Below, piece by piece: positions 13,467-31,191 of a stretch of DNA of 64,000 nt. This DNA is from Escherichia coli (lineage in GTDB: Bacteria > Pseudomonadota > Gammaproteobacteria > Enterobacterales > Enterobacteriaceae). The position numbers and the translations under genes were made by a program. The stretch lies in the NCBI RefSeq assembly GCF_003334405.1, contig NZ_QOWM01000004.1. One strand, given 5' to 3'. Position 1 is the stretch's first letter. Each line of letters begins with the position of its first letter. Under the pieces are notes generated by a model. It was given only the letters and a program-made list of their open reading frames with translations. It ran no database searches and was not told the origin of the DNA.

Positions 13467-13496
13467 ATGCAGGCATAAAAATTGGGGGAGGTGCCT

Positions 13497-15773
13497 ATGC
13501 TCAATCAAGAACTGGAACTCAGTTTAAATATGGCTTTCGCCAGAGCGCGCGAGCACCGTCATGAGTTTATGACCGTCGAGCACTTGTTACTGGCGCTGCT
13601 CAGTAACCCATCTGCCCGGGAGGCGCTGGAAGCGTGTTCTGTGGATTTGGTTGCGCTCCGTCAGGAACTGGAAGCCTTTATTGAACAAACCACACCCGTT
13701 CTGCCTGCCAGTGAAGAGGAGCGCGACACACAGCCGACGCTGAGTTTTCAGCGTGTACTGCAACGTGCGGTCTTCCATGTCCAGTCCTCCGGTCGCAATG
13801 AGGTTACCGGTGCAAACGTTCTGGTCGCTATCTTTAGCGAACAGGAGTCGCAGGCGGCATATCTGTTGCGTAAACATGAAGTCAGCCGTCTCGATGTGGT
13901 GAACTTTATCTCTCATGGCACGCGTAAAGACGAGCCGACACAGTCTTCTGATCCTGGCAGCCAGCCAAACAGCGAAGAACAAGCTGGTGGGGAGGAACGT
14001 ATGGAGAATTTCACGACGAACCTGAATCAGCTTGCGCGCGTGGGCGGAATCGACCCACTGATTGGTCGTGAGAAGGAGCTGGAGCGTGCTATTCAGGTTC
14101 TCTGCCGTCGCCGTAAAAACAACCCGCTGCTGGTGGGGGAATCTGGTGTCGGTAAAACCGCGATTGCGGAAGGTCTTGCCTGGCGAATTGTTCAGGGCGA
14201 TGTGCCGGAAGTGATGGCTGACTGTACGATTTACTCTCTCGATATCGGTTCTCTGTTAGCGGGCACAAAATATCGCGGCGACTTTGAAAAACGTTTTAAA
14301 GCGTTGCTCAAGCAGCTGGAGCAGGACACTAACAGCATCCTGTTTATTGATGAGATCCACACCATTATCGGTGCGGGTGCAGCGTCTGGTGGTCAGGTCG
14401 ATGCGGCTAACCTAATCAAACCGTTGCTCTCCAGCGGTAAAATTCGTGTAATTGGTTCGACAACCTATCAGGAGTTCAGCAACATTTTCGAGAAAGACCG
14501 TGCTCTGGCGCGTCGCTTCCAGAAAATTGATATTACTGAACCGTCGATCGAAGAAACTGTTCAAATCATCAATGGCCTGAAACCGAAGTATGAAGCGCAC
14601 CACGACGTGCGTTATACCGCAAAAGCGGTGCGTGCGGCGGTAGAGCTGGCGGTGAAATACATTAACGATCGTCATCTGCCGGATAAAGCCATTGATGTTA
14701 TCGACGAAGCGGGCGCTCGCGCACGCCTGATGCCGGTAAGCAAACGCAAGAAAACCGTTAATGTGGCGGATATTGAGTCCGTGGTGGCCCGTATTGCACG
14801 CATTCCAGAGAAGAGTGTTTCTCAGAGTGATCGTGATACCCTGAAAAACCTCGGCGATCGCTTGAAAATGCTGGTCTTCGGTCAGGATAAAGCCATTGAG
14901 GCGCTGACTGAAGCCATTAAGATGGCGCGTGCAGGTTTAGGTCACGAACATAAACCGGTTGGTTCGTTCCTGTTTGCCGGCCCTACCGGGGTCGGGAAAA
15001 CAGAGGTGACGGTACAGCTTTCGAAAGCTTTGGGCATTGAGCTTCTGCGCTTTGATATGTCCGAGTATATGGAACGCCATACCGTCAGCCGTCTTATTGG
15101 TGCGCCTCCGGGATACGTTGGTTTTGATCAGGGCGGTTTGCTGACTGATGCGGTCATCAAGCATCCACATGCGGTGCTGCTGCTGGACGAAATCGAGAAA
15201 GCGCACCCGGACGTGTTCAATATTCTGTTGCAGGTGATGGATAACGGTACGCTGACCGATAACAACGGACGCAAAGCAGACTTCCGTAACGTGGTGCTGG
15301 TGATGACCACCAACGCCGGGGTACGGGAAACTGAGCGCAAATCCATTGGTCTTATCCACCAGGATAACAGCACCGATGCGATGGAAGAGATCAAGAAGAT
15401 CTTTACACCGGAATTCCGTAACCGTCTCGACAACATTATCTGGTTTGATCATCTGTCAACCGACGTGATCCATCAGGTGGTGGATAAATTCATCGTCGAG
15501 TTGCAGGTTCAGCTGGATCAGAAAGGTGTTTCTCTGGAAGTGAGCCAGGAAGCGCGTAACTGGCTGGCCGAGAAAGGTTACGACCGGGCAATGGGCGCTC
15601 GTCCGATGGCGCGTGTCATCCAGGACAACCTGAAAAAACCGCTCGCCAACGAACTGCTGTTTGGTTCGCTGGTGGACGGCGGTCAGGTCACCGTCGCGCT
15701 GGATAAAGAGAAAAATGAGCTGACTTACGGATTCCAGAGTGCACAAAAGCACAAGGCGGAAGCAGCGCATTAA
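13497..15773 (+). CDS. clpA: ATP-dependent Clp protease ATPase/unfoldase subunit ClpA
   Basis: ORF 13482..15773 trimmed to ATG at 13497 ([14 protein letters not shown]) with a GGGGGAGGTG Shine-Dalgarno; two AAA+ modules with Walker A GESGVGKT and GPTGVGKT. Confidence 0.93.
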
Positions 15774-15797
15774 TCTGATTGTTAGGTAGGTTGGTCA

Positions 15798-15834
15798 AGT
15801 CCGTAATCTCGAAAGAGGTTACGGACTTTTTGTT
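15798..15834 (+). terminator. Rho-independent terminator downstream of clpA
   Basis: Stem gtccgtaa(tctc)/(gag)ttacggac (15799-15826) followed by TTTTTGTTT. Confidence 0.72.
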
Positions 15835-15985
15835 TATGGGGTGGAGGAGGTTCAGACCCTTTTTTTAATGATGATGGTAAGTTGTTGATAATTAGTGCTG
15901 CGGGAAGGTAAGGATAAAAAAGGGTGCTGCAGGAGAATGGGATGGTTTTGCTTTATTAACAACGGGCTAAACGTGTAGTATTTGA

Positions 15986-16073
15986 GTTCACTGCCGTACA
16001 GGCAGCTTAGAAATTCACAGGTAACATACTCCACCCGCCCACCATGTTCACTGCCGTACAGACAGATAAAATG
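15986..16073 (+). CRISPR. Orphan type I-F CRISPR remnant: two 28-bp repeats (second degenerate) flanking one 32-bp spacer; no cas genes in the window
   Basis: Repeat 1 at 15986-16013 is GTTCACTGCCGTACAGGCAGCTTAGAAA, the type I-F repeat as I recall it; spacer 16014-16045 is ttcacaggtaacatactccacccgcccaccat; repeat 2 at 16046-16073 is gttcactgccgtacagacagataaaatg; location between clpA and serW fits the known CRISPR3/4 site. Confidence 0.8.
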
Positions 16074-16075
16074 CG

Positions 16076-16105
16076 AAAAAAAAGCTCGCACTTTCGTACG
16101 AGCTC
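16076..16105 (-). terminator. Rho-independent terminator downstream of serW
   Basis: Minus-strand hairpin agctcg-(10 nt loop)-cgagct followed by a U8 run (plus-strand A8 at 16076-16083). Confidence 0.6.
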
Positions 16106-16116
16106 TTCTTTAAATA

Positions 16117-16204
16117 TGGCGGTGAGGGGGGGATTCGAACCCCCGATACGTTGCCGTATACACACTTTCCAGGCGTGCTCCTTCAGCCACTCGGACACCT
16201 CACC
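16117..16204 (-). tRNA. serW: tRNA-Ser (anticodon GGA), 88 nt with long variable arm
   Basis: Reverse complement reads GGTGAGGTGTCCGAGTGGCTGAAGGAGCACGCCTGGAAAGTG...GGTTCGAATCCCCCCCTCACCGCCA; encoded CCA end; T-loop GGTTCGAAT. Confidence 0.95.
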
Positions 16205-16457
16205 AAATTGTTTTGCTACCAAACCTCATGGGTGGCAACGGGGCGCTACTATAGGGAGTTGGAGTAAAACGGTCAAGAAGAATTTTAATGATAATTATTG
16301 TTTGCTCATACTGTAAACAAGTTGTGCAGTATATCTACATCGAGACAAGTTACGGACTTATACTTCCAAAGTACTTCATACATATCACAAAATAAAAAGG
16401 CCGGTTAAACCGACCTTTTACTCGTTCTTTCTCTTCGCCCATCAGGCGGTAAAACAA

Positions 16458-23456: not shown

Positions 23457-26400
23457 TTGAGCCAGGAATACACTGAAGACAAAGAAGTCACATTGACAAA
23501 GTTAAGTAGCGGCCGCCGCCTTCTGGAGGCGTTGCTGATCCTTATTGTCCTGTTTGCCGTCTGGTTGATGGCTGCCTTACTAAGCTTTAACCCTTCGGAC
23601 CCCAGCTGGTCGCAAACGGCCTGGCATGAACCTATCCATAATTTAGGTGGGATGCCCGGTGCGTGGTTGGCAGATACGCTGTTCTTTATTTTTGGCGTGA
23701 TGGCTTACACCATTCCCGTCATTATTGTCGGCGGTTGTTGGTTTGCCTGGCGTCATCAGTCCAGCGACGAATACATTGATTATTTTGCCGTTTCGCTACG
23801 CATCATTGGCGTTTTGGCGCTCATCCTTACCTCCTGTGGTCTGGCGGCAATCAACGCTGACGATATCTGGTATTTTGCCTCCGGTGGCGTCATTGGCAGC
23901 TTACTAAGCACTACGCTACAACCACTGCTACACAGTAGCGGGGGAACTATTGCGCTGCTCTGCGTTTGGGCAGCGGGCCTGACGTTGTTCACCGGTTGGT
24001 CATGGGTGACCATTGCTGAAAAACTCGGCGGCTGGATTTTAAACATTCTCACCTTCGCCAGTAATCGTACCCGTCGCGATGATACCTGGGTCGATGAAGA
24101 TGAGTATGAAGACGACGAAGAGTATGAAGATGAAAATCACGGCAAACAGCATGAATCACGCCGTGCCCGTATTCTTCGCGGCGCGCTAGCGCGTCGTAAA
24201 CGGTTGGCGGAAAAATTCATTAATCCGATGGGGCGGCAAACAGACGCTGCGTTGTTCTCCGGTAAGCGGATGGATGATGACGAAGAGATTACCTACACTG
24301 CACGCGGTGTGGCTGCCGACCCGGACGACGTCCTATTTTCGGGCAATCGTGCAACGCAGCCAGAATATGACGAATACGATCCATTATTAAACGGTGCGCC
24401 AATTACCGAACCTGTCGCTGTAGCAGCTGCTGCTACCACGGCGACACAAAGCTGGGCTGCGCCGGTTGAACCTGTGACTCAGACGCCGCCTGTTGCCTCT
24501 GTTGATGTTCCACCTGCGCAACCTACAGTAGCCTGGCAGCCTGTACCGGGTCCACAAACGGGAGAGCCGGTTATTGCTCCTGCACCGGAAGGTTACCCAC
24601 AGCAGTCACAATATGCGCAGCCTGCAGTGCAATATAATGAGCCGCTGCAACAACCAGTACAGCCGCAGCAGCCGTATTATGCACCTGCAGCTGAACAACC
24701 TGCGCAACAGCCGTATTATGCCCCTGCGCCAGAACAACCGGTGGCAGGTAACGCCTGGCAAGCCGAAGAGCAGCAATCCACTTTTGCTCCACAGTCTACA
24801 TACCAGACTGAGCAAACTTATCAGCAGCCAGCCGCTCAGGAGCCGTTGTACCAACAGCCGCAACCCGTTGAACAGCAGCCTGTTGTGGAGCCTGAACCCG
24901 TTGTAGAAGAGACAAAACCCGCGCGTCCGCCGCTTTACTACTTTGAAGAAGTTGAAGAGAAGCGAGCCCGTGAACGTGAACAACTTGCGGCCTGGTATCA
25001 ACCGATTCCAGAACCGGTTAAAGAACCAGAACCGATCAAATCTTCGCTGAAAGCACCTTCTGTTGCAGCAGTACCTCCAGTAGAAGCCGCTGCCGCTGTT
25101 TCCCCGCTGGCATCTGGCGTGAAAAAAGCGACACTGGCGACGGGGGCTGCCGCAACCGTTGCCGCGCCAGTCTTCAGTCTGGCAAATAGCGGTGGACCGC
25201 GTCCTCAGGTCAAAGAGGGGATTGGTCCGCAGTTGCCACGACCGAAACGTATCCGCGTGCCAACTCGTCGTGAACTGGCGTCTTACGGTATTAAGCTGCC
25301 CTCACAGCGTGCGGCGGAAGAAAAAGCCCGTGAAGCCCAGCGCAATCAGTACGATTCTGGCGATCAGTACAACGATGATGAAATCGATGCGATGCAGCAG
25401 GATGAACTGGCACGTCAGTTCGCCCAGACACAGCAGCAACGCTATGGCGAACAGTATCAACATGATGTGCCCGTAAACGCAGAAGATGCAGATGCTGCGG
25501 CAGAGGCTGAACTGGCTCGTCAGTTTGCGCAAACTCAACAACAACGTTATTCCGGCGAACAACCGGCTGGGGCGAATCCGTTCTCGCTGGATGATTTTGA
25601 ATTTTCGCCAATGAAAGCGTTGCTGGATGATGGTCCACACGAACCGTTGTTTACGCCAATTGTTGAACCTGTACAGCAGCCGCAACAACCGGTTGCACCG
25701 CAGCAGCAATATCAGCAGCCGCAACAACCAGTTCCGCCGCAGCCGCAGTATCAGCAGCCACAACAGCCGGTTGCGCCGCAGCCACAATATCAGCAGCCGC
25801 AACAACCGGTTGCGCCACAGCAGCAATATCAGCAGCCGCAACAACCGGTTGCGCCGCAGCAGCAGTATCAGCAGCCACAACAGCCAGTTGCGCCACAACC
25901 GCAGGATACCCTGCTTCATCCGCTGTTGATGCGTAATGGCGACAGCCGTCCGTTGCATAAACCGACGACGCCGCTGCCTTCTCTGGATTTGCTGACACCG
26001 CCGCCGAGCGAAGTGGAGCCGGTAGATACCTTTGCGCTTGAACAAATGGCTCGCCTGGTGGAAGCGCGTCTGGCTGATTTCCGTATTAAAGCCGATGTCG
26101 TCAATTACTCTCCGGGGCCGGTTATCACTCGCTTTGAATTGAACCTGGCACCGGGCGTAAAAGCGGCGCGCATTTCTAACTTGTCACGGGACCTTGCCCG
26201 TTCACTTTCGACGGTGGCGGTGCGTGTCGTTGAAGTTATTCCTGGCAAACCCTATGTAGGTCTGGAGTTACCGAATAAAAAACGACAAACCGTTTATCTG
26301 CGCGAAGTTTTGGATAACGCCAAATTCCGCGATAATCCGTCGCCATTAACCGTGGTGCTGGGTAAAGATATCGCCGGTGAGCCGGTGGTTGCCGATCTGG

Positions 26401-30953: not shown

Positions 30954-30973
30954 TACCCAATTTTTCTGAATCT

Positions 30974-30999
30974 AAAAAGCGCCTGCGGGCGCTTTTTTT
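30974..30999 (+). terminator. Rho-independent terminator downstream of serS
   Basis: agcgcc-tgcg-ggcgct hairpin followed by T7. Confidence 0.75.
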
Positions 31000-31191
31000 G
31001 TCTCCCTTTGATACCGAACAATAATTACTCCTCACTTACACGTAATACTACTTTCGAGTGAAAATCTACCTATCTCTTTGATTTTCAAATTATTCGATGT
31101 ATACAAGCCTATATAGCGAACTGCTATAGAAATAATTACACAATACGGTTTGTTACTGGAATCAATCGTGAGCAAGCTTGAGTGAGCCATT

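Follow-up and report, generated by a model that had tools for sequence, protein, structure and literature searches.

Why does an Escherichia coli genome keep a pair of CRISPR repeats with one spacer between clpA and serW when no cas genes lie around it, and what is that spacer directed against? These questions were addressed in the window, which here means the whole 64-kb stretch of DNA that was analysed. The feature is almost certainly an orphan type I-F array carrying an anti-cas1f spacer in an E. coli without cas-F genes. It is the minimal K-12-type form of this array, consisting of a leader, one intact repeat, one spacer and one degenerate terminal repeat.

Both the array and its anti-cas1f spacer are already known from the literature: the locus was described in 2010 and its function was tested in 2016. 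Touchon & Rocha (2010, PMC2886076) described the array as CRISPR3 and reported that its spacers 1 and 2 match Ypest Cas1 and Cas3, that each E. coli genome without the Ypest cas genes has at least one such spacer, and that the terminal repeat is conserved. An 'anti-CRISPR' role was proposed for CRISPR3 in the same study. The Mojica group uses the name CRISPR4.1-2, at the CRISPR-III locus (PMC3903273, Almendros 2014; Diez-Villasenor 2010). A reading of this DNA from sequence alone (the sequence-only reading) had placed the repeats at the clpA-infA CRISPR3/4 site, which agrees with both CRISPR3 (PMC2886076) and CRISPR4.1-2 (PMC3903273). According to what two reviews (PMC5972030, PMC8616872) relate of Almendros et al. 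2016 (Nat Microbiol 1:16081), native orphan arrays are expressed constitutively, act by interference against plasmids bearing the full I-F cas set and prime the uptake of new spacers. Only two points in the present analysis are mildly new, namely the distribution quantified over 5426 genomes and two lesions of the K-12-type allele. The locus is a CRISPR memory aimed at CRISPR itself, and it has served to argue that many E. coli lineages fare better without I-F immunity.

Structure of the array and its surroundings

The features of the locus are listed below by their positions in the window.

13497-15773, + strand: clpA, the upstream flanking core gene (ORF 13482-15773; NCBIfam ClpA equivalog, 1696 bits)
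15797-15828, + strand: intrinsic terminator of clpA, 14-bp stem and T-run (terminator scan, inverted repeat)
15829-15985, + strand: leader of the array, 60% A+T versus 49% for the window
15986-16013, + strand: repeat 1 (R1), consensus I-F repeat GTTCACTGCCGTACAGGCAGCTTAGAAA (sequence; Rfam CRISPR-DR4)
16014-16045, + strand: the sole spacer, 32 nt, TTCACAGGTAACATACTCCACCCGCCCACCAT (sequence)
16046-16073, + strand: repeat 2 (R2), degenerate terminal repeat GTTCACTGCCGTACAGACAGATAAAATG (sequence)
16006-16065, + strand: predicted 60-nt crRNA, made of an 8-nt 5' handle CUUAGAAA, the spacer and a 20-nt 3' handle (I-F processing rules, PMC5965380, PMC5965381)
16111 to 16076, - strand: serW terminator, hairpin and T8 (terminator scan)
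16117-16204, - strand: serW, tRNA-Ser(GGA) (ARAGORN, Rfam tRNA)
16286-16393, no strand assigned: 108-nt stretch at the site of the second leader and CRISPR4.2 array, which span 638 nt in cas-positive strains (blastn breakpoints against the cas-positive strain BEN2908)

The NCBIfam matches around the array are CspD, ClpS, ClpA, IF-1 and Aat, and the gene order cspD-clpS-clpA-[array]-serW-infA-aat is that of E. coli. The start of clpA was put at 13497 because the ClpA equivalog match covers residues 6-763. The terminator of clpA shields the array from clpA read-through. On the other side, the second repeat had been described as running straight into the serW terminator, and the terminator scan bears this out, since only 2 nt separate the end of R2 from the terminator hairpin. 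From its sequence, this terminator may also stop + strand transcription of the array, the stem then being followed by TCTTCTTT. The terminator segment is conserved beside serW in cas-positive BEN2908. The whole intergenic segment (15774-16116) is present in 5424 of the 5426 complete E. coli genomes, with at least 99% identity in 1108 records, and RefSeq annotation of the array is absent in every cas-less match listed.

The leader is 95% identical to that of BEN2908 (alignment of window 15700-16013) and identical to that of strain M10. This sequence agreement marks it as a homologue of the CRISPR4.1 leader in cas-positive strains. Its last ~43 nt before R1 contain one variable column among 15 loci, and the distal leader is polymorphic. 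At its threshold, the consensus scan detected no sigma-70 site on the leader's + strand, and the candidates picked manually were poor.

Two copies of the first 20 nt of the repeat lie 60 nt apart and differ by 1 mismatch, and no such repeat pair appeared in dinucleotide-preserving shuffles of the window. Two repeats in register around a 32-nt spacer make the smallest array possible, and the spacing of 28 + 32 nt is exactly that of type I-F. R1 matches Rfam CRISPR-DR4 over 28/28 positions with 50.1 bits (E = 1e-10; gathering score 35) and is identical to the repeats in cas-positive E. coli arrays. R2 scores 20 bits, below the gathering score of 35. Within its first 20 nt it has a single change, G17->A, which produces a C.A mismatch in the stem, and its last 8 nt have diverged to ATAAAATG instead of CTTAGAAA. 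The coordinates of both repeats and of the 32-bp spacer, as well as the degenerate 3' end of the second repeat, had been given exactly by the sequence-only reading. Its assignment of the repeat to type I-F also holds, the 28-mer aligning over its full length to the I-F model. No further repeat copy beyond R1 and R2 was found in the 64 kb window. Other strains carry 3-4 repeats at the same spot and in the same register. Weak Rfam matches near the array (sX4, MicC, sraA, Thr_leader) all lay far under their gathering scores and were dismissed.

The two repeats differ strongly in their predicted folding. The R1 hairpin (CUGCC-GUACA-GGCAG) has a predicted fold of -8.6 kcal/mol, and the GGCAG version of the terminal repeat in O157:H7-type arrays reaches the same value, whereas the R2 of the window folds at only -1.4 kcal/mol, no better than shuffled sequence. 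From the known biology of Cas6f (PMC5965381), cleavage of R1 is predicted after G20, between 16005 and 16006. The 60-nt crRNA would be expected from the array only when a I-F Cas6f is supplied.

Some short direct repeats are common to the serW-infA stretch and the leader region on the clpA side, with their order swapped: 15863-15890 versus 16283-16310 (71%) and 15809-15828 versus 16340-16359 (85%). Such similarity could have arisen by chance.

Absence of the cas operon

The sequence-only reading had found no cas genes anywhere in the window, and two approaches lead to the same result. In tblastn with six Cas-F proteins of BEN2908, the spacer was the only match in the window. By alignment, positions 1-30997 are collinear with strain G8 at 99.98% (poxB ... 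clpA ... serS) and positions 30490-64000 with K-12 MG1655 at 99.97% (serS, dmsABC ... cmoM), and the annotation of these collinear stretches in G8 and K-12 MG1655 contains no cas genes. Because the window has no cas-F genes, the array is an orphan, at least within these 64 kb.

In the cas-positive strains BEN2908 and M10, the clpA to infA interval is arranged as array-cas1f-cas3f-csy1-csy2-csy3-cas6f-serW-array, and the full arrays of cas-positive strains begin at the same base as the array of the window. Compared with BEN2908, the window is 95% identical over the clpA end, leader and first repeat, 96% identical from the serW terminator through serW, and 99.7% identical from the infA terminator onward. 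From the breaks in this alignment, window positions 16014-16076 therefore occupy the place of ~9 kb of array and cas operon. Between serW and infA, including 16286-16393, neither repeat copies nor a relic of CRISPR4.2 were found by repeat search and by blastn against BEN2908. The 108-nt stretch at 16286-16393 is unrelated to the second leader and array of the cas-positive strains.

Two further observations were made elsewhere in the window. An Rfam STnc130 sRNA (30967-31101, - strand, 140 bits) adjoins serS, and the collinearity with G8 ends inside this element, at 30997, where G8 has a P2-like prophage. In-frame tandem repeats with a period of 39/117 lie at 25674-25894 and 24664-24739, where the collinear G8 annotation places ftsK, and also show as blastn self-matches. 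We take them to be the Pro/Gln-rich linker of ftsK.

The spacer matches cas1f of the missing system

It had been suggested that the lone spacer could tell of past targets or self-matching, and searches against phage, plasmid and E. coli sequences were proposed for it. The spacer matches cas1f of the missing I-F system in cas-positive E. coli, next to a CC PAM, and no phage or plasmid target was found in the collections searched. In BEN2908 (locus record L001), it matches positions 14930-14961 on the - strand, inside cas1f, with 2 mismatches (30/32 identical), and shuffles lead to an expectation of 0 matches. Apart from spacer positions 4 and 6, the spacer is the antisense strand of cas1f codons 33-43. 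On the strand identical to the spacer, the protospacer is directly preceded by CC on its 5' side, corresponding to GG on the target strand, which is the GG/CC PAM of E. coli I-F (PMC3506596). Against the M10-type cas1f allele, the spacer has 3 mismatches.

Both mismatches to the BEN2908 allele fall in cas1f codon 42. The difference at position 4 is synonymous (AGC versus AGT, Ser), and the change at position 6 would give Cys. Position 4 of the spacer mismatches 241/241 cas1f alleles of the collection. The I-F seed comprises positions 1-5 and 7-8, and position 6 is shielded from pairing by the Cas7 backbone (PMC5965380). O157:H7-type arrays carry an intermediate form of the spacer, TTCACTGG..., with a mismatch at position 4 only. 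Because this form is intermediate, the form in the window is most simply a later derivative. The change separating the K-12 and O157 spacer variants thus concerns only position 6, which is unpaired in the complex.

Other sources of the spacer were considered and rejected. As to a phage origin, the 32-mer had nothing but a chance match of 17 nt when compared by blastn with 50,697 phage records. For a plasmid origin, 72,556 plasmids gave only a weak match, to the cas1f of a Vitreoscilla plasmid. No other match to the spacer with up to 3 mismatches was found in the window, and in genomes it occurs at one place each.

A cas1f allele matching the spacer perfectly was also searched for. There was none among the 241 E. 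coli cas1f genes, none in JGI metagenomes (PAM-anchored patterns, with any base at position 6), none in PLSDB, and none in IMG/VR, which returned only two E. coli chromosomal fragments. Among 100,044 GTDB species representatives, a codon-degenerate scan, whose pattern required a Cys codon and so left a synonymous Ser-AGT allele outside it, gave no such allele, and its one match was a copy of the orphan array in a MAG. This MAG (JADFJT010000085.1, 'Proteobacteria bacterium') is the only GTDB species representative fitting the spacer pattern. With the match at positions 1151-1182 of locus record L003, its contig has this E. coli orphan array in identical sequence. The ORFs downstream of the array in this MAG are unlike infA-aat, and the bin may contain E. 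coli sequence.

Distribution of the array and of cas1f among E. coli genomes

The counts were made in a set of 5426 complete E. coli genomes. The exact 32-mer spacer is found in 1432 of the 5426, including K-12 MG1655, W3110, BL21(DE3), DH5alpha and MC4100. The repeat-spacer-repeat unit in either variant is found in 2331 genomes, of which 535 have the O157-type, about 1509 the K-12-type and 328 more diverged forms. cas1f is present in 241 of the 5426 genomes and is always chromosomal, with the B2-type allele in 202 of them and the M10-type in 39. The spacer and cas1f hardly ever meet in one genome: at most 3 of the 5426 genomes carry both cas1f and the K-12-type spacer, and the O157-type spacer never occurs together with cas1f. 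By simple arithmetic, independence would predict about 64 co-occurrences, an expectation that is confounded by phylogeny.

A comparison of array length across strains had also been suggested. The 13 orphan arrays sampled have 2-4 repeats and contain 8 distinct spacers. When compared with the two cas-F allele groups, each of these spacers matches cas1f or cas3f at 0-3 mismatches, beside a CC PAM, in one group or in both. Where the anti-cas1 spacer is present in the sampled arrays, it is always leader-distal, beside the terminal repeat, and it is therefore the oldest spacer. Some strains have a 4-nt deletion in the anti-cas1 spacer, which looks like drift.

In the collections searched, cas-F genes of the E. 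coli type were confined to chromosomes and to this same locus, and none turned up on plasmids or phages. The 15 plasmids that carry cas1f belong to other genera and have 66-75% identity. The supposed incoming mobile carrier has therefore not been seen. The re-entry of cas-F would presumably occur by recombination of the whole clpA-infA segment.

Two related loci showed peculiarities of their own. In ECCNB20-2 (NZ_CP034787.1; locus record L006, 480-800), tandem units of ~177 nt lie between the same orphan array and serW. Each unit joins the serW 3' end and terminator to an element named 'RtT sRNA' in the RefSeq annotation, and the window is without such units. In E. coli MS1050 (NZ_CP097726.1; locus record L015, 268-666), RefSeq draws a 'hypothetical protein' CDS (WP_012602745.1) over a four-repeat orphan array, and this CDS is very likely a spurious gene call.

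Mode of action and alternative explanations

We are fairly confident that the published 'anti-cas' mechanism is the most likely mode of action of the orphan array. For this array, its transcription, processing, interference and priming are inferred or taken from the literature. The array would be transcribed from its own leader and would stay inert without I-F Cas proteins. If incoming DNA with a I-F cas operon were expressed, Cas6f would cut the array transcript in R1 and would stay bound to the 20-nt 3' hairpin of the crRNA. The Csy complex would load this crRNA and find the CC-flanked protospacer in the incoming cas1f. Cas2-3 would then degrade the incoming DNA, or the seed mismatch would lead to primed acquisition of more spacers. 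By either outcome, the incoming I-F system would destroy its own carrier.

Whether this K-12-type allele is still effective is a separate question, and we consider the chances about even. It is the most worn among the sampled orphan alleles. Since position 4 in the seed mismatches all 241 cas1f alleles, priming would be favoured rather than direct interference. Cas6f must hold the 3' hairpin for RNA protection and complex assembly (PMC5965381, PMC5965380). In the folding model, the G17->A change of R2 nearly abolishes the predicted hairpin, which, like the seed mismatch, argues that the allele is weakened. The stronger proposal, that the K-12-type allele, which roughly one in four sequenced E. 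coli carry, is a disabled anti-cas array, is tentative and seems rather unlikely. If it is true, the 'vaccine against CRISPR' would no longer be under selection in phylogroup A/B1-like lineages, the O157:H7-type arrays and the arrays with perfect anti-cas3 spacers would remain competent, and the locus would offer a natural allelic series for testing whether anti-cas immunity is selected. The two lesions of this commonest allele, the seed mismatch and the broken terminal hairpin, could separate a selected anti-cas device from a drifting fossil.

The alternative that survives best is that the array is an inert fossil. Here an ancestral I-F system would have taken spacers against its own cas1 and cas3, autoimmunity would have selected the deletion of the 9-kb cas block, and the rest would be drifting. 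This is a real possibility, to which we give clearly less than an even chance. It is not mutually exclusive with the published anti-cas mechanism, and can coexist with that mechanism for other alleles. The idea of self-targeting followed by loss is cited in PMC8616872 and PMC2886076, and several observations are consistent with it. The sampled spacers all derive from the two genes closest to the array, cas1f and cas3f, and from both strands, which is the expectation for self-priming. The seed mismatch to 241/241 cas1f alleles, the broken terminal hairpin and the spacer variant with the 4-nt deletion point in the same direction, as do the leader scan, in which no promoter consensus was found, and the failure to see a mobile carrier of E. 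coli-type cas-F genes.

In contrast, divergent lineages show little or no variation in R1 and the ~43 nt of leader next to it while the distal leader is polymorphic, and the exact spacer is kept in 1432 genomes. According to Touchon & Rocha (PMC2886076), unselected spacers should vanish fast through repeat recombination. The sole change between the K-12 and O157 spacers also lies at the unpaired position 6, a weak argument as ~1/6 of random changes would land so. In the accounts of the two reviews (PMC5972030, PMC8616872), moreover, native orphan arrays are reported to interfere and to prime.

The sequence-only reading had called the locus a remnant. That it is a minimal array without cas genes stands, whereas 'remnant' is one of two published evolutionary readings. 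In the second, the array without cas genes came first and is retained as an anti-cas device.

A Cas-independent antisense or regulatory RNA is very improbable. The spacer is antisense to the cas1f coding strand, and so could act by complementarity to cas1f mRNA, partial matches to host mRNAs are conceivable, and orphan arrays have been proposed as regulators in general (PMC8616872). However, this target gene is absent from the cell, the window holds no second match to the spacer within 3 mismatches, the spacer occurs at one place per genome, and supporting evidence for such a role was not found. That the segment is not CRISPR at all, being a duplicate that arose by chance or ordinary conserved intergenic DNA, has a negligible probability: there are only two repeat copies, the second under the Rfam gathering score, and the locus is unannotated in RefSeq, but this explanation is refuted by the full-length 50-bit match of R1 to the I-F model, the 0 shuffled repeat pairs, the exact I-F spacing (28 + 32 nt) and the 3-4 in-register repeats of other strains, and cas-positive full arrays also start at the same base.

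Comparison with known systems

The closest known counterpart is the published CRISPR3 / CRISPR4.1-2 array. The array of the window shares with it the locus, the repeat, the leader, the conserved ...ATAAAATG terminal repeat, the lack of cas-F genes and the single spacer matching Ypest/I-F cas1, and nothing categorical differs. Compared with the K-12-type allele of the window, the O157:H7-type arrays have an intact terminal hairpin and one mismatch fewer.

The active I-F CRISPR-Cas systems of E. coli B2/B1 strains (LF82, BEN2908 and M10, with CRISPR4.1 and CRISPR4.2) have the same 28-nt repeat, 32-nt spacer length, PAM and insertion point after clpA, and their leader is shared, that of M10 being identical. 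In contrast, the window lacks the 9-kb cas1f-cas3f-csy1-3-cas6f block as well as an array between serW and infA, and its single array has 1 spacer versus 5-18 and another terminal repeat. Its spacer type targets cas genes, whereas the spacers of the active arrays target plasmids.

The I-F arrays of Pseudomonas aeruginosa, Yersinia and Pectobacterium belong to the same repeat family (Rfam CRISPR-DR4; Cas6f/Csy4 substrates). R1 resembles their repeats in its 5-bp stem, its 5-nt loop and the G at the cleavage site. The array of the window would also be expected to share their 60-nt crRNA architecture and to obey the same seed rule. Those arrays have their cognate cas genes and are aimed at phages and plasmids, whereas the array of the window stands alone and is aimed at the system's own adaptation gene.
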